Below are positions 2,585 to 11,878 of a stretch of DNA of 12,096 bases, in pieces. This DNA comes from an uncultured bacterium. Its GTDB lineage: Bacteria > Zixibacteria > MSB-5A5 > UBA10806. A program made the translations under genes and the position numbers. How positions within the stretch are numbered: position 1 is the stretch's first letter; every line of letters begins with the position of its first letter. Location of the stretch: the NCBI GenBank assembly GCA_965541585.1, contig CBEUCH010000032.1, positions 1-12,096 on the forward strand, in the 5' to 3' direction. The notes beneath the pieces are model-generated. The model searched no databases. It was not told where the DNA came from and saw nothing but the letters and a program-made list of their open reading frames with translations.

Positions 2585-3907
2585 TTAGGCTCTGGTTTGC
2601 AGTGCTATGAAAGGACTGAGAGTGTTCGATCCCTTGTAGGGAATCAGCGCGGCGTTCCAGATCGGCTGACCATCGATCCGGTAAGTAAACCGGTAGGTCA
2701 TTTCGTCGTTGAGAAATCGAACGTGGATCGAGCTGGCGCTTTTCATCACGCCCTTATCGGCCGTGACGTATTGGCTGAAATCGCCGAGTATGATATCGCC
2801 GACTGTTCCCAGCGTCGCGCATTGCTCGATCGGCAAAAGCGGCCGACCCATGAGCGTCGAATATGGTGAGTTTGCCAGGCTGTTCGCCGGCATATAAACC
2901 GGAACGCCGCCGGTTCCCACGGCCAGGCTCATGGTAAACAGGGAAGGTTCGATGTCCTGGTTGATCATCCACACGGCGTTTCCACGCGAGCGGCCCCACA
3001 TCCGTGACCACATCTTGACGATGTTCTCCACCTGGACGGTGGCCGCCGCCTGGCCGGTCTCTTTATTCACCGTTACCAGACAATCAGCGTTCAGGATTCC
3101 CAGAGGTTTCCCAGCTCCATCGCCGTTCACCAGGGCATCGTCGAGCTTGAAGCCGAATTCCTCGGCGAAACCATCCATGAGAATGGATTCCATGGCTTCG
3201 CTGTCCTCAAGCAGTTCGTCGGTGGCGTAACATAGGCCGGTCAGTTTATGGAGCGTTAACTCTATCTGGCGGAGTTTTGGCGCTGATCCGGTGAGCGCCG
3301 CGGCTTCATCAGCCCAATAAGCCCGAATCCCGCCCAGCCTGGAACCATCGGCTCGACTCGATTCTGCATAGGCATTGATCTTGAGACCGTTCGACCGACG
3401 GCTGATCGGGATCCGCCGTGTCCGGCCGGCCAGGAGTCCGGTCTCATAAGTCCGTTTCAGGAGTTCGTCCACGAAATCCTTTTGAACCATGAAACCGCCG
3501 TCGGATGGAACCGCCTCTCCAACTCCGCTGGCCGCGCGAACGTCGATGAGCCTCTGATCAATCGTTCCTCCAGGGATCCCCGCATTGGTGACGGCCATCA
3601 TGAACTCGCCGAAAGTGGCGAACCTCTTTTCGTGAGTCGGATCGGGATCGCCGCCATCGCCATCGCCGTCCACGTCCGGTTTCGTGGGATCGCTTTGAGA
3701 GCTTTTAAGATCGGCGGTCGTTTTGGTCATCCGTTCCTCGACGGCGATCTCTTTCTGGATGGTTTCGATGTCATCCAGGAAACCGTTCATCTGATCGATC
3801 TCGGTCTCCGTCAGGCTCCTTTCCTCCTCGCCGGCGAGCTTTTTAATCCCTTCGACTTTCTCATAAAGCTCGCGCATCTCTTGTCTGAGCTTTGCTATTT
3901 TGTCCAT
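2585..3907 (-). CDS. HK97-family major capsid protein with N-terminal delta (scaffold) domain
   Basis: N-terminal coiled coil, then SDGGFMVQKDF, AYWADE, ELTLHKL, TDELLEDS, GDGAGKPLGILN, TLMGRP, IILGDFSQY and RFTYRIDGQP. SD AAAGGAG. Confidence 0.96.
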   Translation of the reverse strand: MDKIAKLRQEMRELYEKVEGIKKLAGEEERSLTETEIDQMNGFLDDIETIQKEIAVEERMTKTTADLKSSQSDPTKPDVDGDGDGGDPDPTHEKRFATFGEFMMAVTNAGIPGGTIDQRLIDVRAASGVGEAVPSDGGFMVQKDFVDELLKRTYETGLLAGRTRRIPISRRSNGLKINAYAESSRADGSRLGGIRAYWADEAAALTGSAPKLRQIELTLHKLTGLCYATDELLEDSEAMESILMDGFAEEFGFKLDDALVNGDGAGKPLGILNADCLVTVNKETGQAAATVQVENIVKMWSRMWGRSRGNAVWMINQDIEPSLFTMSLAVGTGGVPVYMPANSLANSPYSTLMGRPLLPIEQCATLGTVGDIILGDFSQYVTADKGVMKSASSIHVRFLNDEMTYRFTYRIDGQPIWNAALIPYKGSNTLSPFIALQTRA

Positions 3908-3922
3908 AGCTTATTTTCTCCT

Positions 3923-4840
3923 TTATAAAAATTCTTTGATTCTGGTCATCCTCTCTCTGATCTCCAGAGTCCTGATTTGAGAGTGGATCTTCTGATCCGG
4001 CTCTCCATCACCATCCGAGTGGATCCCCTGATCCGGCTCGCCTGGTATATAACCTTGTAAAAGGTCGATCGCTGATAAAAGGATTTCAAGATCTCTTTCT
4101 TCGAGATCTAAACCCTGATCGCATTTCTCCATGGCCCCGTTGAGATCTTCATACCCGATCCCTTTGTCATCGAATATCGATCTAATATGCAAGTCGGTCT
4201 GAGGATAAGCCGGAAACGTCACCATTGAGATATCGAACAGCTTCACCTCCAGGAGTTCCCTGGTCACCTCTCCCTTTTTGTTCTGACCCCAGATCTCTTT
4301 ATCCGGAACTGACTGAAACCCGAAACTATTATGATGAATATCTCCACGTCTTATAGGTTCCAGAACCAGCTCATCGATGATCTGTGTCTGCGGAGGATGC
4401 GCCTCATAAGCCAGACCTCTCTTATCCTCCTCCAGAAAAAGTGTCTGTTCTTTTTTGTTTTTGGAATTCCCCAGAACGAAATTAGGATCATGATTGAATA
4501 AAGCCCTCACCTCGGCCTCTTTGATGGTTTTGGCGAAAGCTCCTTTCCTTATTTTTTCCCTCATGCCCCACATCGGCTCGCTCCACTTATCGAACACCGC
4601 GGCATGGCCCACGATTATCGGAGCGGTATCATCATCGTCGGCGATCCTCAGCTCCATCAACGGGAACACCCTGCGCTCCATCTCATTAAAAGTTCTCCGT
4701 TTTGAATGCCCCCATAATGAATTTGAAATTGCTTTCCGCTTTTCGTCGGTTTCGTATTCCTCTATCACCGACTTGTCAGCCATGAAACGATCAACGTATT
4801 TGACCTTGCTCTCTCCTGGATCCGGTCTCGGTAATAACAT
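3923..4840 (-). CDS. HK97-family prohead (maturation) protease with N- and C-terminal extensions
   Basis: GHAAVFD, REKIRKGAF, ALFNHD (catalytic His), SFGF (catalytic Ser) and DISMVTFPAYPQT. Lies between portal and capsid genes. Confidence 0.95.
   Translation of the reverse strand: MLLPRPDPGESKVKYVDRFMADKSVIEEYETDEKRKAISNSLWGHSKRRTFNEMERRVFPLMELRIADDDDTAPIIVGHAAVFDKWSEPMWGMREKIRKGAFAKTIKEAEVRALFNHDPNFVLGNSKNKKEQTLFLEEDKRGLAYEAHPPQTQIIDELVLEPIRRGDIHHNSFGFQSVPDKEIWGQNKKGEVTRELLEVKLFDISMVTFPAYPQTDLHIRSIFDDKGIGYEDLNGAMEKCDQGLDLEERDLEILLSAIDLLQGYIPGEPDQGIHSDGDGEPDQKIHSQIRTLEIRERMTRIKEFL
3981..4042. repeat. Two 26-nt imperfect direct repeats (36-nt period) in the protease C-terminus
   Basis: gagtggatcttctgatccggctctcc (3981-4006) and gagtggatcccctgatccggctcgcc (4017-4042), encoding GEPDQGIHS / GEPDQKIHS. 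Confidence 0.85.
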
Positions 4841-4854
4841 TTTTTATCTCCCAC

Positions 4855-6816
4855 TTAAACAGGCTCTATTGTGCAATCACAACCACTGTGAATCGGAGGA
4901 TGAGCGATGTTCGTCCTGGTGATCAATTTCTTTTCGGGATCGTCGCCTTCAAAGGTCTCGCCTTTGCTGGCGAAATGTTCTCGGATACCCACGGTTTTTC
5001 CATTAAGTTTATTGCAGAAAGGACAATTCTCGCCGTGTGCGCGCCATACTAAATGAGTGATCCCGCCCATGATAAAGACAGCTCGCGCAATGGCATTTCC
5101 GGATTGAACGGTTTCCCTCTTTGCGATCCTTCCAGGTCGCTCCTCCTCCCATTGGTTCAAGCGTTCATCAAGCGCCTCATTCACATCCTCGTCGGCTTCC
5201 TCGGTTTCGAGAATGAGTTTCCGGAGCTGGTTGATCGATGAACCAATATGGCGAACCGTAAAGGTCTCCATATAAGCCCTCACGAATTCCTCAACCTCTG
5301 GCGTCATTTCCTCAACTGCATCCCCGATCTCTCCGGATGCCTCAACCTGAATGCTTTCAGCATAGGTGAGAAAAACAGGGAGCATCTGTCGCTCCATGAA
5401 TAACGGATGACTCCGATAAAATTCCTCCAGCCAGGCCAGGAAATCGGGAACATTTCTTCGATCCAGATATTTTTTCATCGCCTTCCGGATGTCATTGACC
5501 TCTCTCCTGACGACCTTCCCTGCGGCGTCTTTGAAAATTTTCTGGTATTTCTCGCCGAGTCGCCGGCGAGCTGTGGAGGATCGACTCTCTTTTAATGTCA
5601 GGAGGCGTTGATCTCCATCTCCCTCTGGTATCTCGCCGACGCTGGAAGCAGGAACCATATTCAGAGGAACCAGATATTGATCCCCCTCCTCTCCGATGGA
5701 GTTCATATTCTCCAGCCGCCGGATCTCATTCGCCGAGAGCCAGCCCCACTGTCGAGCTACGGCATAAGCATCATATCGGCTTTTCGTGTCTCCCCGTAAT
5801 AGGCCGGCAATAAGGAATTCGGCGAAATGAGTCTCATATTCCTGTTCATTGAAAAGCGTGTTCTGGATGGCGCTCTCCCAATTCACCAACCAGGGCATCA
5901 CGGAATCGGTCACGAACTCAATGCTCTGATGCTCGATATTGGAAAAAGTGGCTCGCTCCAGATCCATCAGCTTGTGAGGAGGGAGGCCATACCACCTTGC
6001 GATTTCGATCACCTGGAATTTCCTGGTCTCCAGGAATTGAGCATCCTCCGGAGGGATCCCGATCTGTTTCCACTCGATGCCTTCCTCCAGGATCAAGAGC
6101 CGATGCATATTGCTTAATCCACCATGAGCCTTATTCATTCCTCGATCCAGCCGCTTGTGAGCGACGTCGCTCATTTTTGAAGGATGCTGGAGGATCCCCC
6201 CTGGTTTCATTCCCTGGCCGAATAACCTGGCGCCGGCTTCCTCGGTCGCCAGGCCCAGACCGATGGACTCCCTGGCGATCTTGATCGGCGAATAACCGAT
6301 CACGCCGTTTATCGAGAATCCTCGGAGATGAAATATCTGAGCAAAACTGAAAGTTTTGGGTTCCCCGCTCGGAAGCCGATATTCATAAACCAGGGATCCG
6401 GCTTTTCTCTTGACTTTCATGCTCGCCGGATTCAGCGGCCATAAAGCCTTGACGATTCCCATGTTATCTCTCTCGATCTCTGAGTAAGCGTTCCCCCAAA
6501 GGAGGAGATGCCCCTGGATCGCTGAACGGTAATTAAAAGATGATTGCTCTGGATTCGGTTTGTCGTGGAGGATCCTAAAAAGCGGATGTTCCGGAGAGCG
6601 CTCTTTTTCGGAATTATCCAATCTGCGGTAAACGGGAAGCGGCAACATGGCCACCGTGTTTGAAAGCAAACTGATCGCTCGATAAACCGCTGAATAATTA
6701 AGAGCGCGTGCCTCATCGACTCGCGCTCCGGAGTTCGTCTCTACGCCAAAATCATCATAATACCGATCGTCGGTGGGATTCCATTTCCTTTTTTCCAGCC
6801 TGGATAATATTCCCAT
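4855..6816 (-). CDS. HK97-family portal protein fused to a C-terminal MuF/SPP1 gp7-like head morphogenesis domain
   Basis: Portal motifs over about the first 390 aa: SAVYRAI, LLLWGNAY, IFHLRG, GYSPI, DAQFLETRKF, EIARWYGLPPH, SNIEHQ and NEIRRLEN. The tail has RIAKRETV, LVWRAHGENCPFCNKLNG and HPPIHSGCDC. Confidence 0.93.
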   Translation of the reverse strand: MGILSRLEKRKWNPTDDRYYDDFGVETNSGARVDEARALNYSAVYRAISLLSNTVAMLPLPVYRRLDNSEKERSPEHPLFRILHDKPNPEQSSFNYRSAIQGHLLLWGNAYSEIERDNMGIVKALWPLNPASMKVKRKAGSLVYEYRLPSGEPKTFSFAQIFHLRGFSINGVIGYSPIKIARESIGLGLATEEAGARLFGQGMKPGGILQHPSKMSDVAHKRLDRGMNKAHGGLSNMHRLLILEEGIEWKQIGIPPEDAQFLETRKFQVIEIARWYGLPPHKLMDLERATFSNIEHQSIEFVTDSVMPWLVNWESAIQNTLFNEQEYETHFAEFLIAGLLRGDTKSRYDAYAVARQWGWLSANEIRRLENMNSIGEEGDQYLVPLNMVPASSVGEIPEGDGDQRLLTLKESRSSTARRRLGEKYQKIFKDAAGKVVRREVNDIRKAMKKYLDRRNVPDFLAWLEEFYRSHPLFMERQMLPVFLTYAESIQVEASGEIGDAVEEMTPEVEEFVRAYMETFTVRHIGSSINQLRKLILETEEADEDVNEALDERLNQWEEERPGRIAKRETVQSGNAIARAVFIMGGITHLVWRAHGENCPFCNKLNGKTVGIREHFASKGETFEGDDPEKKLITRTNIAHPPIHSGCDCTIEPV

Positions 6817-6968
6817 TATTTAAAAATCCCTATCGCAGAGATCACCGCGCCGGCCACCACCGGCCCGATCCATTTAAGTTCGGCTGGTTCAAAGATCATC
6901 CATAAACCGAAAGCGACCACGGCCAGACCGCCGAAAAATAAAATGTCTTTGAGAGTATCATCTTTCAT
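6816..6968 (-). CDS. Small 2-TM membrane protein preceding portal (50 aa)
   Basis: Not in the ORF track. MKDDTLKDILFFGGLAVVAFGLWMIFEPAELKWIGPVVAGAVISAIGIFK; its TAA overlaps the portal ATG (TAATG). Such small hydrophobic genes are common between terL and portal. Confidence 0.8.
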   Translation of the reverse strand: MKDDTLKDILFFGGLAVVAFGLWMIFEPAELKWIGPVVAGAVISAIGIFK

Positions 6969-7002
6969 AAAAAAAGGAGACCAGCCTTTCAGCCGGTCTC
7001 CT
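6969..7002 (-). terminator. Rho-independent terminator
   Basis: Minus strand AGGAGACCGGCT-GAAA-GGCTGGTCTCCT (12-bp stem with two G-U pairs) followed by TTTTTT. Confidence 0.85.
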
Positions 7003-7060
7003 CTCTATAATTGAAAGTCTATTCAAGCCTCATGTTTTAATGCTTCTGCTCACCTGTTAC

Positions 7061-7081
7061 TTAAAACCTACCACTCAACAT
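7061..7081 (-). other. Six-codon mini-ORF MLSGRF with a near-perfect Shine-Dalgarno
   Basis: AGAAAGGAGG (7086-7095) GCTT ATG TTG AGT GGT AGG TTT TAA. Confidence 0.45.
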
Positions 7082-7114
7082 AAGCCCTCCTTTCTATTAT
7101 TTAACCATCCCGGA

Positions 7115-7147
7115 ATTGTAATTAGCATAAAACGGTTTTTCTGTCAA
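7115..7147 (-). promoter_or_regulatory. Candidate sigma70-type promoter just after the terL stop
   Basis: Perfect -35 TTGACA (7142-7147). At 17-bp spacing there is TGC-TAATTA, an imperfect extended -10; TACAAT occurs at 21 bp. Confidence 0.4.
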
Positions 7148-7158
7148 TCGAAATGTAG

Positions 7159-8841
7159 TTATCCCACCGAAAGGACTCCCCGCTCATCGTAAGGACTCCC
7201 CTCCTCTTTCTCCTGAGCGATGCATCTCCCCAGCGCCATGATGCTGGCCACCAGACCGTCGATCTTATTTTTCGGGATCTCCTTTGTCGGATAGATCTGG
7301 CGCTTGTCGTTCTCTTTGGAAACCAGGTTACTGGCCATCCAGCTCATTACCGGATTTCCGTCATGATGCCATTTCTTTGAAAGTGTCAGAGCTTCCAGTT
7401 CATGCATGGGTTCTGAGAAATTCTTATATGCCGCATTGACCTCTACCATCGGCGCTCCCTCGGCCAGCATGTGCATCGCGAGCTGTGTCGCCTGGAAAGG
7501 ATCATAAGGGATCTGTTCGACCTGATAAATGGAGGTTACTCGCCTCAGCTCCTCCTCGATGAGATCCATATCGATAATGTTCCCCTCCGTCGTTCGGATC
7601 CAGCCGGCTTCGGCCCAGCCTCGATATTGTGCATTGTTAGTCTCCGCGATAACATCCTCCGGAAGCCAGAACGTCGGAAATACATAATAATGGCCGTCCT
7701 TCGGAAACAGGATCACCATCACATTAAAGTCTGTCTTGCTGGCCAGGTCGAGTCCGATAAAGCATGGCTGACCTTTGAAATCCTCGATCTTTATTTTTGT
7801 ATCCTTACATGCCCGCCATTTTTCCATGTCCAGAAAAGCATTCAGGGAGCCGACCCATATATCGAGATGCCTTTGCTTGAACGTCGGCGCGGCGCTGGGA
7901 GTGACGCTGGCTTTTTTATGTGCGCTTTTCATATAAGTAGGGAGAACGGAAACGCCATAATTCGGATTCGCTTTTTTCCAGGTGTCCTCGGAATTCCAAT
8001 CATCACCCTCATCAATAGTATAGATCACCCCGAAAAAGGAATCGTCCTCAAACACTCTTTGAAGAATTTTCTCCAGGTAATCTCTGACCTCATAGCAGAT
8101 GCCAGAAATATCGTTGCCGGCCGTGGTGATCAGCCAAAGTAAAGGCTGAGTTCGGGATCCCATGGAGGTCTCAATGACATCATATACATCACGCGTTTTG
8201 TGCGCGTGGAATTCATCGATGATTCCGCAATAGGTATTGAATCCTTCCAGCCCTTTGGCATCTGAGGAAACCGGTTGAAAGAACGAATCTGTGGATCTCA
8301 CGATGATGGAATGAGCCAGCGGAGTGACGCCGAAAGCGGCCTTGAATTTCGGCGTCTTTGACGCCATCAGGTTCGCGGCCTTGAATACAATTCCCGCCTG
8401 GCTCCTGGTGGTAGCCGCCGAATAGACCTCCGCCCCAGGTTCGTCATCGATCGCCAGCATCTTGAGGCCGACTCCCGCGCTCAATGTGCTTTTGGCGTTC
8501 TTTCTGGGAACCTCAACATAGACCGATCGGAAGCGTCGGAGATCTGTCTTTTTGTTTTGCCAGCCGAATACGGACGTCAGGATGAAACATTGCCATGGCT
8601 CCAGGGAGATCTTTTCTTTCCGTTGCGCCCACTGGCCCTTAATGTGCGGAAACAGCTCGATGGCCGCGCAAACGTCATCGCCTTCCTCGGCATTAAAATA
8701 AAAAGGCCAGGCTTTTCGCCTGGCCCTTTCGAGATCATCGAGATGTCGCTGACATGCCTGCTTAATTAATTCACATGCCGGCGTTTCGCCGTTGACTACA
8801 TCCTCACAATATTGCAGAGCTTTCTCAGAATATTTTTTCAT
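7159..8841 (-). CDS. terL: Terminase large subunit (Terminase_1-like)
   Basis: LEPWQCF, Walker A VPRKNAKST, YSAATTRSQA, Walker B IIDEFH, ITTAG, WKKANP, and nuclease motifs GLDLASKTD, YDPFQA and NKIDGLVA. Confidence 0.97.
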   Translation of the reverse strand: MKKYSEKALQYCEDVVNGETPACELIKQACQRHLDDLERARRKAWPFYFNAEEGDDVCAAIELFPHIKGQWAQRKEKISLEPWQCFILTSVFGWQNKKTDLRRFRSVYVEVPRKNAKSTLSAGVGLKMLAIDDEPGAEVYSAATTRSQAGIVFKAANLMASKTPKFKAAFGVTPLAHSIIVRSTDSFFQPVSSDAKGLEGFNTYCGIIDEFHAHKTRDVYDVIETSMGSRTQPLLWLITTAGNDISGICYEVRDYLEKILQRVFEDDSFFGVIYTIDEGDDWNSEDTWKKANPNYGVSVLPTYMKSAHKKASVTPSAAPTFKQRHLDIWVGSLNAFLDMEKWRACKDTKIKIEDFKGQPCFIGLDLASKTDFNVMVILFPKDGHYYVFPTFWLPEDVIAETNNAQYRGWAEAGWIRTTEGNIIDMDLIEEELRRVTSIYQVEQIPYDPFQATQLAMHMLAEGAPMVEVNAAYKNFSEPMHELEALTLSKKWHHDGNPVMSWMASNLVSKENDKRQIYPTKEIPKNKIDGLVASIMALGRCIAQEKEEGSPYDERGVLSVG

Positions 8842-8849
8842 TCAGTATC

Positions 8850-8915
8850 CCTGGAGGAGAGCGACGAACACTGTGGCCCGCCAGCTCCCCACCAGGCTCC
8901 GGAGACCGGCCGGAG
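8850..8915 (-). promoter_or_regulatory. Tandem stem-loops in the terL leader; the larger one overlaps the likely terL SD
   Basis: Minus strand CTCCGG-CCGGTCT-CCGGAG, then CCTGG.T.GGGGAGC.T.GGCGGGC-CACAGT-GTTCGTC.GCTCTCC.T.CCAGG, then GATACTGAATG (terL start). Confidence 0.55.
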
Positions 8916-8931
8916 TTTAAGATGGTTTATT

Positions 8932-9942
8932 CTATACCGGCCGGCGCTGTAAGTCAACATTGAGATCTATTTCGGTAGCTTCTAAAGGTCTTAAAACTGA
9001 TTTCCAATGTATACCCGCATCCATAGAGGAAACGATGCCCGCCACTTCAAGATAATTCTCCGCGATTATAAAACTTTCCGGCATTTCATCATTGAGACAA
9101 TTCGTATTTTCCTTAACCGCTATAATGGGAATGCCCGCCTTTAAACATGCATGATGCGGTGGCCCCACACAATCTATCGGCGTGATCAGACAGTCCATAT
9201 CATAAACACTTAAAGCCCTTCGTGACCATGATAACCGTGGAGCTTTGTGTAACCCTTTTAAAACACTATGCAGATAACATATTGAAATCATTTCAGCCGA
9301 CATTCGTGGATCAACTATTTCCTTAAAGTCTTCAAGCGTGTCCCCACTGGGAGCATGAGCCACTGGTTTATTTATCCACTGAGCAATTAATCTTGATGCC
9401 TTCGCTTCAACACCTCCCCATGGATTAATCCCACCATTCCTTAAATAATTCTCAGCTATCTCTTTTTCCACTTTAATCGGTGTAGTAATAGCAAGAGCAT
9501 CATATTCGTATCCATCAACTTGACGTGCTAACTCCTTCCATCCATGAACCTCTCCGGAAGCTCCTTTCTCTGTCATCGTTGCGATCATCTCCAGCGGAGT
9601 TTCGAGTTCAATAACCTTAGCGTCAATTCCTATCGTCGCCCTTCCAGCCGATACCGCGTTTATAGTTTCCTTCTTTATCGGTGAATTGACGGCCACTAAT
9701 ATCTTATTATAATTAATAGGTTGAAGTCTTATTTCACTACGTAAAAAACGATCCAAAATACTCCCTTCGACATAAAGCGTGTTTTCCGTCATTTCGTTTA
9801 TATCGCTGGCGTTCACCACGTTAGGATGAGTAATGAGAATATCTGAGACAGACGCCATAAGTTTCGCCACCGGATTTCCATCCCCTGCATGACCACCGAT
9901 TTCACATCCGATCCCTGTCGGAATGATTAAAACCACGTTCAT
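8932..9942 (-). CDS. DUF3326-family protein (336 aa)
   Basis: N-terminus VVLIIPTGIGCEIGGHAGDG...LITHPNVVNAS...LYVEGSILDRFL, plus GGINPWGGVEA and IIAVKENT, match the DUF3326 pattern known mainly from cyanobacteria and plants. Visibly more AT-rich than terS and terL. Confidence 0.85.
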   Translation of the reverse strand: MNVVLIIPTGIGCEIGGHAGDGNPVAKLMASVSDILITHPNVVNASDINEMTENTLYVEGSILDRFLRSEIRLQPINYNKILVAVNSPIKKETINAVSAGRATIGIDAKVIELETPLEMIATMTEKGASGEVHGWKELARQVDGYEYDALAITTPIKVEKEIAENYLRNGGINPWGGVEAKASRLIAQWINKPVAHAPSGDTLEDFKEIVDPRMSAEMISICYLHSVLKGLHKAPRLSWSRRALSVYDMDCLITPIDCVGPPHHACLKAGIPIIAVKENTNCLNDEMPESFIIAENYLEVAGIVSSMDAGIHWKSVLRPLEATEIDLNVDLQRRPV

Positions 9943-10419
9943 TTATTTTCCCTTTTTGAATCTGTTCCATTCATTATGCTGGCCGCCCCTTCCCTCTGTA
10001 ACGGTCACCTTTGTCCTGGCCGCCGGCGTCAAACCGAACTCGGCATATAATCCCTTGATCGCCGACCTGACCGTGTTCCTTTGCCCCAGCTCCGGCCTCG
10101 GCCGCTGAACGAATCCTCCGGTGGTTTTCCTGGTTTTATACGTCATGCCTTTCTCGGCCAGGTAAGCGTTCAGATCATCCAGCTCCGCTTGCATGGTAGC
10201 CAATAAAAGAAGCGCCGGCCCATCGGTCATCGTGAGGATCCCCAGCTCATCAATGACCGCGGCCAGGCGCTTATAAACCTTTCTCACGTTCTTAGGAGTT
10301 CCGATCGGACACCTCGGAATCCCCTCAGCCGGATCCGGCTCGGCCGGATTATCTCGATCGGCCCTGGCCGTCCCTTGAATGAGGTGGAGTTTAGCCGGCT
10401 TCCTTTTCCTTCCCGCCAT
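9943..10419 (-). CDS. terS: Terminase small subunit, P27 family
   Basis: MAGRKRKPAKLHLIQGT N-terminus, LGILTMTD and C-terminal AEFGLTPAARTKV. SD AAGGA. Confidence 0.93.
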   Translation of the reverse strand: MAGRKRKPAKLHLIQGTARADRDNPAEPDPAEGIPRCPIGTPKNVRKVYKRLAAVIDELGILTMTDGPALLLLATMQAELDDLNAYLAEKGMTYKTRKTTGGFVQRPRPELGQRNTVRSAIKGLYAEFGLTPAARTKVTVTEGRGGQHNEWNRFKKGK

Positions 10420-10422
10420 CCA

Positions 10423-10654
10423 TCAATCCTTCATCAATCGCAGAAATTCTGGAACCACCGCCGGAACGATGGCGTTTCCAAGGGTTCTAAGTCTGTCCAC
10501 CCGAGAGGGAACCCCATGAGCCACTCGACCCACGTCGGGTTCAGTTGTCCACCAACCTTCTCGCCCAAGTTCCCCTTGCCCCGATCTATTATGCTGTCCT
10601 TGTGCATGAACTGTCTCGGCGTAGGCCATGTTCTTACCGCCACATCCAAACTCT
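10423..10654 (-). pseudogene. 3' remnant of a phage C5-cytosine DNA methyltransferase (alpha frame, motif X)
   Basis: WWTTEPDVGRVAHGVPSRVDRLRTLGNAIVP is a typical phage Dcm-like C-terminus. Upstream of ~10654 the frame runs into antisense transposase DNA, and motifs I-VIII are absent. Confidence 0.8.
10434..10654 (-). pseudogene. 3' part of the overlapping alternative-frame methyltransferase polypeptide (beta frame, motif IX-like)
   Basis: SLDVAVRTWPTP...GQLNPTWVEWLMGFPLGWTDL resembles C5-MTase motif IX (LTPRExxRLQGFP), encoded in a different frame nested inside the motif X ORF. Confidence 0.7.
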
Positions 10655-11056
10655 GGAGCCGTTGAACGGAATGGTAAACTTGCGATTGCCAAAGTCCCCG
10701 ATGTCAAGTCCAAAACTCTTATCCCCTTTGTTTCTGGAAAGGTTGACCGCTCTGCCACAGTCCATACTGATGAACTGGCAAGCTATAAACCCCTCAGCAA
10801 GTCTGGATACAAGCATAAAACAGTCCATCACAACCTCAAGCTATATGTAATTGATGATGCCCACACAAACACCATTGACGGGTTCTGGAGCCTGCTCAAG
10901 CGTGGCATCAACGGTGTCTATCATTCAGTAAGCCCCCAGCATCTTCAGGGCTATCTAAACGAGTATTCCTTCAGATACAATCACCGGGAAGACGAAATCC
11001 CTATGTTTGAGACGATGCTCCACCGCGTTTCCCGACATCAGCAAGACGGCGAGTAA
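10655..11056 (+). pseudogene. IS1595-family (ISXO2-like) DDE transposase, 5'-truncated
   Basis: GAVERNG, VHTDELASY, HKTVHH, HTNTIDGFWSLLKRGINGVYHSVSPQHLQGYLNEYSFRYNHR. The Zn-ribbon, HTH and first catalytic Asp region are missing. The ATG at 10628 lies in antisense methyltransferase DNA. Confidence 0.9.
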
Positions 11057-11150
11057 CTTTTCCAAGGGCTGAGAAGAAATTTCGTCTTGTGATTTCTGGC
11101 TTTTCCTGCTCTCTTGGTTTTTTACTTTTTTTCTTCACTCTGACCCTCAT
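11001..11150 (-). CDS. Small basic protein (49 aa) overlapping the transposase 3' end in antisense
   Basis: Not in the ORF track. ATG overlaps the TGA of the 215-aa gene (ATGA). Translation MRVRVKKKSKKPREQEKPEITRRNFFSALGKVTRRLADVGKRGGASSQT. Confidence 0.5.
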   Translation of the reverse strand: MRVRVKKKSKKPREQEKPEITRRNFFSALGKVTRRLADVGKRGGASSQT

Positions 11151-11794
11151 TCATTAGATTTTTTAGGAATCCAACGAAGAACATACCCTTGACCAGGAAG
11201 TAAGTGCCCATTATATCGCCATGTTCCTATAATGTCTGGTTCTTCCTTTTGTGGTATGGGTGAAGCAAATTGGCACCTAAATTCAAATCGGTCTGAAATC
11301 TCTGTTCTAATCAATGTAACAGAACAATTTCTTGTAAGATGTTTCATATCACCACGCATTTGTCCTCCGTGTGTATAATAATGGACTTCTCGGCATCTCA
11401 TAAGTACTCGAATGGGATTATCAACTTCTATAGTATATTCGAATTTACCATTATCCATATATTTGTCTATATTTATAATCTCGTCACCTATTTGAACTTC
11501 ATCAAGAGATGGCAGTCCTTTATCAATAATCACGGGGTATTCATTGAGGCCAATATATATTGTGCATTTAACTGGGCGAGAAGATTGTTTTCTAAGCATA
11601 TATTCATGTTGTATCTCTATAACTACAAGGTCATCAATTTCATCTATCATTTGTAATCTTGCTGTATAGTCTGTACGTATTATTTTCGGTGATAGCAAAT
11701 CTGATAAGTATTCTACTATGTTTCCATTCGAATCTTGCTCAAGGCCCAATAATGACCGAATATTTATTTCCTGTAAATCTCTTTGCATTCTCAT
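11147..11794 (-). CDS. AT-rich hypothetical protein (IS passenger), probably 5'-truncated
   Basis: 215-aa ORF ending in LLPGQGYVLRW. The frame stays open upstream to 11878 (..GILETIVATGYFVDYFTQRRAIRGLM) with no ATG, so the true start may have been lost; AGAGGA lies just before ATG 11794. Confidence 0.65.
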   Translation of the reverse strand: MRMQRDLQEINIRSLLGLEQDSNGNIVEYLSDLLSPKIIRTDYTARLQMIDEIDDLVVIEIQHEYMLRKQSSRPVKCTIYIGLNEYPVIIDKGLPSLDEVQIGDEIINIDKYMDNGKFEYTIEVDNPIRVLMRCREVHYYTHGGQMRGDMKHLTRNCSVTLIRTEISDRFEFRCQFASPIPQKEEPDIIGTWRYNGHLLPGQGYVLRWIPKKSNE

Positions 11795-11878
11795 AAGTCC
11801 TCTTATAGCCCTTCTTTGAGTAAAATAATCAACAAAATAACCAGTAGCAACTATAGTTTCCAGAATTCCCTCGAGTGT

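Follow-up and report, generated by a model that had tools for sequence, protein, structure and literature searches.

A selected DUF3326 cargo gene in a phage head operon and its possible role in polyamine-type metabolism

An intact DUF3326 gene separates the terminase genes terS and terL in a phage head operon binned with an uncultured bacterium of the Zixibacteria. Why does the gene lie there, and what could its product do for the phage? The window, i.e., the whole stretch of 12,096 nucleotides that was analysed, is contig C32 in a 40-contig, 98%-complete genome. The literature search, mostly outside subscription journals, found no papers on phage DUF3326, and the search for PF11805 found no paper.

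The DUF3326 gene and its operon

Features of the window are listed in Table 1. The terS, terL, portal, protease, and capsid genes were all five found in the customary HK97-type order.

Table 1. Predicted features of the window, with position and strand.
Feature	Position	Strand	Evidence or remark
Major capsid protein	2585-3907	-	PF05065, phrog_10
Prohead protease S78	3923-4840	-	PF04586
HK97-type portal, C-terminal head-morphogenesis-like extension	4855-6816	-	PF04860; phrog_12, phrog_2662
Terminase large subunit terL	7159-8841	-	PF03354, PF20441, phrog_9
DUF3326-terL spacer, 90 nt	8842-8931	-	predicted hairpin over terL ribosome-binding region
DUF3326 gene	8932-9942	-	336 aa, PF11805 E 1.3e-73; probable amine-condensing enzyme, predicted two-domain alpha/beta
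Terminase small subunit terS (P27 type)	9943-10419	-	PF05119 E 1.5e-17, phrog_83
Shine-Dalgarno-like AAGGGA	9949-9954	-	in terS end, 6 nt ahead of DUF3326 ATG; read from the sequence
DNA methyltransferase 3' remnant	10423-10758	-	phrog_32758 and phrog_363 over residues 51-110 only
Truncated IS1595-family transposase	10628-11056	+	PF12762, profile 42-153/153; NF033547, profile 100-215/215

ORF inspection found zero internal stops in the DUF3326 gene. The PF11805 match covers residues 3-316 and profile positions 2-336 of 337, scoring 248 bits against a curated cut-off of 25, i.e., membership is full-length. The gene is a genuine DUF3326 member, as a profile check proposed in the first-pass annotation was meant to establish. 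That annotation had also described a complete, AT-richer ORF directly after the terS stop. Both points are confirmed, as the terS stop TAA (9945-9943) abuts the DUF3326 ATG (9942-9940) in the same frame, and GC3 is 0.37 (gene GC 0.43) versus 0.53-0.67 in seven other measured late genes.

Of 80 columns that are at least 90% conserved among 205 sequences, 78 were retained by the window protein. The invariant motifs, i.e., PTG, GG-x-x-GD, HPN-x-x-N, EG, NP-x-G-x-x-E, AH, E217, and Y-x-E, are all kept, and the earlier suggestion of an enzyme holds as a probable one. No PHROG or NCBIfam family matched the protein.

The AF2 model was predicted with pLDDT 88 and pTM 0.85. In the model, a Rossmann-like domain is formed from both termini and an alpha/beta domain (~75-238) is inserted, which had pLDDT 91 when predicted alone. 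In the structural check that had been recommended, Foldseek returned nothing at E<=0.001 from PDB and BFVD. Searches of PDB gave no sequence hit at E<=1 and, by profile, three weak lipoxygenase rows (E ~0.5). By VIA-align, GT-B enzymes gave the best match to the whole model, in their C-terminal domain (Z 10.2, with an rmsd of 3.2 across 124 residues), and lumazine synthase that to the inserted domain (74-238; Z 8.9, rmsd 4.0). These matches are generic arrangements, Rossmann-like for the whole model, from which no function was drawn, and judged by the predicted model no solved structure is close to DUF3326. The conserved Gly-rich loop and the His, Asp, Glu, and Asn residues would fit an active site between the two domains. 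The homodimer prediction scored 0.30, below its mark of 0.42, and counted neither for nor against a dimer.

Homology to deoxyhypusine synthase (DHS), an idea formed by eye, was rejected by hhalign (probability 0.7%, 124 DUF3326 versus 26 DHS-like sequences). PF01916 (DHS/SpeY) did not match the window protein, and DHS was absent from the 50 best structural rows for the model.

The distance between terS and terL is 1101 nt in the window. The control set consisted of 80 IMG/VR loci with terL 33-46% identical to that of the window, 77 of them with detectable terS. The gap was <200 nt in 70/77 and >=900 nt in 0/77, and DUF3326 was found in 0/80, so the insertion is unusual. From a regular HK97-type head operon, the window differs by a 1-kb foreign gene splitting terS and terL. 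DUF3326 resembles moron-type cargo in that its composition is foreign and related operons are without it.

The operon layout suggests read-through from terS rather than an own promoter. A sigma70-like site with 10/12 consensus match lies at 8957-8929. The promoter scan found 5 such sites versus 2.7 +/- 1.9 expected, i.e., the matches are not significant, and the terminator scan found none 3' of DUF3326. The fold of 8836-8940 has -44.9 kcal/mol (z -3.43), with 0/200 shuffles as stable. This hairpin on the minus strand pairs the terL ribosome-binding region and may restrict terL translation.

Some other features of the operon were recorded. In the portal (653 aa), a long stretch added at the C-terminus matches the head-morphogenesis families phrog_2662 and, weakly, phrog_24918. 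Shortly after the capsid gene, a cut ORF (2-616, -) showed a weak match to the carbohydrate-binding CBM_4_9.

Alleles, selection, and position among viral loci

A second terS-DUF3326 allele, 97% identical, was found on contig C39 of the same assembly (window 8868-10419 versus C39 1-1552). The two DUF3326 alleles differ by 32 synonymous and 11 non-synonymous changes (dN/dS 0.091, Fisher p 1.7e-13). Purifying selection on DUF3326 is strong, and neutral capture, against which a dN/dS check had been proposed, is not what the alleles indicate. The differences are patchy, lying in codons 8-82 and 232-336, while codons 83-231 and most of terS are identical. Because the diverged tracts continue into the spacer (8870, 8925) and the terS end (9949, 9970), the differences arose in the present context, and recombination among co-occurring phages with a common layout is suggested.

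Four runs have contigs over the operon, and among the runs listed for it none was of RNA. A run X1 contig, X1 being possibly the source sample, covers 2769-10515, a run X2 contig from another study has terL-DUF3326-terS at ~93% identity, and pieces in runs X3 and X7 bridge terL and DUF3326. No joint bypassing DUF3326 was among the run-contig matches listed. Because the second allele and the other-run contigs preserve it, the terS-DUF3326-terL arrangement is not a misassembly. At the terS/DUF3326 junction (window 9952-9954), the X2 contig has ~100 additional bases, which might lengthen the end of terS or be what is left of a partner.

The interval 10420-11875, upstream of terS, is strain-variable. 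It holds the methyltransferase remnant, the IS1595 transposase, which overlaps the remnant and has a single copy in this assembly, and a 215-aa ORF (11147-11794) that is AT-rich (GC3 0.23) and has no family. The segment is missing from C39, where a DUF5131 gene and a 94-aa ORF form the counterpart, and is bypassed by a run X7 contig. At L035:7027-8004, a partnerless viral DUF3326 also has DUF5131 directly upstream; this resemblance to C39 may be chance.

The methyltransferase remnant had been taken for an adjacent methyltransferase locus, and a role of DUF3326 in DNA or nucleotide modification had been proposed from it. Such a role could be, e.g., amine supply for a hypermodified base. Phages contain polyamine-substituted thymines, and hypermodification clusters carry linked base-modifying genes such as an intact methyltransferase, an aGPT-Pplase, or an hmdU synthase or kinase. 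Of such genes, the window shows the broken remnant, part of the phage being unassembled. At two loci only, L009 and L020, a protein with an aGPT-Pplase-like motif was found with a glucosyltransferase-like gene. However, the argument fails for the window because the neighbour is a broken gene that neither the sister allele nor the X7 contig contains. Just a few of 225 loci have methyltransferase clusters, DUF3326 has no conserved base-modification neighbour, and late expression would poorly fit precursor-level modification. This role is the least probable of the readings considered here.

DUF3326 loci were gathered from IMG/VR (65 viral loci), metagenomes (best 80 of at least 405), and genomes (best 80 of at least 423). 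Viral homologues therefore exist, and the family, described earlier as mainly cyanobacterial and plant, is also common in uncultured phages. It is frequent in IMG/VR and metagenomes, unlike in cultured phage collections; the DUF3326 pair, i.e., DUF3326 with the decarboxylase described below, had no match in 50,697 INPHARED records.

Gene labels within 2.5 kb, from 218 scanned neighbours and a few Pfam labels extended by cluster, placed 23 of 55 distinct viral loci at head/packaging genes and 5 at neck/tail genes. Another 16 had replication or metabolic genes only, and 11 had nothing labelled. The slots vary, i.e., between terS and terL (L008), terL and portal (L014, L209), or portal and scaffold (L004), before the protease (L010), and at the neck (L022) or tail (L002). 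By raw counts, head adjacency was 12/21 in contigs <20 kb, 5/10 in 20-40 kb, and 6/24 in >=40 kb, a class that includes jumbo phages, so much of this adjacency is probably detection bias. Since many slots are used and head closeness drops in long contigs, the site between terS and terL looks incidental, one of many tolerated landing sites. The link to the packaging motor drawn in the first-pass annotation is weak for the same reasons and by the empty terL control set. Late expression is compatible with the job of DUF3326.

The locus L008:64-4075 is an independent insertion of the order terS - decarboxylase - DUF3326, after which come a second terS-like ORF and then terL. As an ancestor of the window arrangement it was rejected, its terS and terL being only 32% identical.

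These positions also bear on whether DUF3326 modifies virion proteins, i.e., transfers an aminoalkyl group onto capsid or packaging lysines in a DHS-like manner. Head, packaging, neck, or tail genes are near in 28/55 viral loci, the coupling to terS is tight in the window, and lysine N-aminoalkylation agrees with the chemistry proposed below. However, the 16 loci among replication or metabolic genes do not fit, the neighbouring structural genes are unrelated portal and capsid families, DHS profile similarity was not found (hhalign 0.7%), and DUF3326 is widespread in virion-free cells. Virion modification is considered very unlikely.

Decarboxylase partners and the partnerless copy

An AdoMetDC-fold pyruvoyl decarboxylase (PF02675) was found in 57/65 viral loci, 60/80 metagenome loci (best 80 of at least 405), and 27/80 genome loci (best 80 of at least 423). 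Among loci without it, 1 viral, 9 metagenome, and 6 genome loci end <1 kb upstream. When the viral loci were dereplicated at 90%, the decarboxylase remained in 49/55, every one co-oriented, and 40 of the 49 had it within 64 nt of DUF3326. The control terL loci (910 kb) carried an AdoMetDC-fold gene in 0/80. Two proteins, P0149 and P0210, are AdoMetDC-fold/DUF3326 fusions. The presumed cleavage serine of the partner lies mostly in xTS. At L045:5467-7320 and L055:4273-7983, just upstream of DUF3326, the AdoMetDC-like partner is fused C-terminally to 617- and 1236-aa proteins, respectively.

Non-homologous enzymes replace the partner in other loci. A PLP alanine-racemase-fold decarboxylase substitutes in 19/80 genome loci (best 80 of at least 423), and in L050 the substitute is phosphatidylserine-decarboxylase-like. 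Guilt by association is strong here, as the decarboxylases next to DUF3326 come from three unrelated families. At L063-L065, the place is taken by an ornithine cyclodeaminase family homologue.

No decarboxylase was linked in 28/80 genome loci (best 80 of at least 423) and 11/80 metagenome loci (best 80 of at least 405). These are mostly one 40-tip clade (support 1.0), largely Planctomycetota and including L068-L096, with glycoside hydrolases and sulfatases as neighbours and the residues W175V and S220T. W175 and S220 are present in the window copy, as in paired copies. The stand-alone clade possibly has an altered reaction. Cyanobacterial DUF3326 copies cluster with fed3 and DUF650 (PMC4284462). 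Because of this clade and the cyanobacterial clusters, DUF3326 may have other reactions.

Additional neighbours were found in cellular loci, i.e., glutathionylspermidine synthase in 4 and an AMP-binding enzyme in 10 of the genome loci (best 80 of at least 423), and DUF350 in 12 cellular loci. These neighbours hint at conjugation of the DUF3326 product; example genes are L125:7116-8396, L116:2255-3178, and L144:4131-5297.

In the DUF3326 tree (FastTree, midpoint root), the window copy belongs to a 51-tip clade (support 0.90) with L002 and L003 as its sisters, and 44 of 49 other tips are decarboxylase-paired. As shown by the tree, the window copy derives from decarboxylase-paired phage copies. 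However, PF02675 had 0 matches in the window, C39, or the 40 contigs, and a custom partner HMM found nothing at E<1 in the assembled genome. The polyamine-type pathway is therefore incomplete as assembled. The first-pass annotation missed the decarboxylase because the window copy is without it; this selected copy without its partner is what the window adds to the family.

The phage is fragmented. Tail, lysis, replication, and other phage-like genes are carried by C34, C36, C37, C38, and C40, and the pieces, ~30 kb together, showed no join to a host contig. The partner may thus sit in an unassembled part, and the host assignment rests on binning.

Another reading is that DUF3326 is a relic, i.e., it has only lately lost its partner, and the selection signal goes back to paired ancestors. 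The lack of a partner in the assembled genome fits this, as do substitutions at well-conserved positions, i.e., G69S in both alleles and A300V in the window allele alone, and the patchy allele differences, so that the diverged tracts could be recombination imports. However, the tracts run on into the terS end and the spacer, hence arose in place. The X2 phage, ~93% identical, keeps terS-DUF3326-terL, its extra bases being too few for a partner. The 2 deviations at 80 conserved columns equal the median of decarboxylase-paired copies, and the gene is bypassed by no contig among the matches listed. A relic is accordingly judged improbable.

The binned host has a DHS/SpeY-like gene and, close to one that is agmatinase-like, a gene for a pyruvoyl arginine decarboxylase. 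Its single PLP decarboxylase is read, from sequence, as a DAP decarboxylase, and SpeD, SpeE, an AAT-fold decarboxylase, and a cyclodeaminase were not found in the binned genome. The host could provide agmatine, lysine, or a decarboxylase to the window enzyme. A triamine from DUF3326 could be redundant, given the SpeY/DHS-like protein of the host. SpeY-type routes, as far as described in PMC13625781, need not release free putrescine.

DUF3326 occurs in 5/285 genomes of the host's phylum, the window genome included, and the other four have a PLP or AdoMetDC-like neighbour. Capture from the host was rejected, as DUF3326 was found in 0/40 relatives.

Candidate chemistry and comparable systems

The pavABC pavettamine cluster, like the window, has a DUF3326 domain, and in the published account the family is coupled there genetically to a decarboxylase. 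PavB carries DUF3326 and, with PavA, which contains Rieske and PLP decarboxylase domains, is reported as required for N-(5-aminopentyl)pentane-1,5-diamine (bioRxiv 10.64898/2026.06.12.731819). Among the DUF3326 members met in the literature search, PavB is the sole one with a product, a symmetrical triamine made with PavA. The same preprint gives cadaverine as present in all strains, pavA-lacking included, which suggests that diamine supply is not the whole task of the decarboxylase and that its substrate is probably the product of DUF3326. Free diamine is reported there to have failed to rescue decarboxylase loss, which argues against simple host-putrescine feeding.

The window is likened to pavABC by the DUF3326 domain description. 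It is without PavA or PavC (JmjC), has terS and terL as the genes flanking DUF3326, and is phage-borne. The viral DUF3326 partner has the pyruvoyl AdoMetDC fold, whereas PavA is described as Rieske and PLP decarboxylase. As assembled, the window locus is neither a pavABC system nor a complete AdoMetDC-like/DUF3326 pair.

Weighing this evidence, we slightly favour a polyamine-type route, as yet undescribed, in which the selected cargo gene supplies the condensing enzyme; this is the most likely role. The gene would have reached the late operon of an HK97-type phage family by horizontal transfer, as metabolic cargo. The earlier suggestion of a 'new auxiliary metabolic gene' is supported. DUF3326 would be a soluble enzyme linking two amino-acid- or diamine-derived chains by a new C-N bond. 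Its likeliest product would be an N-aminoalkylated ornithine or lysine, i.e., a carboxy-polyamine, which the partner decarboxylase would then convert to a symmetrical triamine, homospermidine or a C5 analogue. Translational coupling to terS would give late co-expression, and the benefit may be extra polycation in DNA packaging or infection. For the window copy, the decarboxylase may be in the unassembled phage part, a host enzyme may serve, or the undecarboxylated product may be useful.

The order of steps has a counterpart. In the carboxyspermidine dehydrogenase/decarboxylase route, a condensing enzyme is followed by a dedicated decarboxylase which acts on the carboxy-polyamine. This route, named in PMC10407285, may be analogous in logic, but no sequence or fold link to DUF3326 was found in the comparison. 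The DHS/SpeY homospermidine synthase would also resemble the proposal, as it is described to form a symmetrical triamine via a C-N bond (PMC13625781) and has a Rossmann-like core; however, its profile probability against DUF3326 is the 0.7% given above.

Phage polyamine enzymes are documented (PMC9992855), and polyamines are reported to be packaged in virions and to neutralise DNA (PMC7226272). The phage AdoMetDC homologues SpeDA and SpeDC, described as lacking spermidine synthase, decarboxylate ornithine or arginine (PMC9992855, PMC10407285) and share their Pfam family with the usual partner of DUF3326. The partners given there for virus polyamine enzymes are SpeE, HSS, SpeY, or CASDH/CASDC, versus DUF3326 here, and neither paper turned up for DUF3326. 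By analogy, DUF3326 may work like phage polyamine auxiliary genes, with an uncharacterised enzyme.

The same chemistry could serve another purpose. The DUF3326 product would then be a small molecule for phage-host conflict, i.e., for counter-defence or for shielding phage DNA from nucleases. An AAA_15 ATPase and an HNH nuclease, Septu-like by Pfam labels, were found near bacterial copies in 8 genome loci each (best 80 of at least 423), for example at L106:3289-4524 and L101:4593-5327, and the distribution is patchy in the host's phylum. However, the phage pairs are without a fixed defence-related neighbour, and the late-operon slot better suits assembly than early counter-defence. This use of the product is thought unlikely.

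The condensing role may also be extended to a wider picture, which is offered tentatively and as rather doubtful. An undescribed symmetrical-polyamine route, with DUF3326 as condensing enzyme, would be expressed late in many uncultured phages and load capsids with polycation. The window phage family would have one gene left, would recruit a host decarboxylase or use the carboxy-polyamine directly, and would have tied the gene to translation of the terminase, which would match supply to packaging.

That the gene sits between terS and terL is in itself of modest importance. Virus-encoded polyamine enzymes are an active topic, and a selected copy that naturally has no partner is well suited as a reagent for the question whether DUF3326 acts before or after decarboxylation. 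If the condensing role is true, it would mean a new enzyme and a new route in polyamine biosynthesis, and a suggested function for a family that cyanobacteria and many uncultured bacteria also carry.
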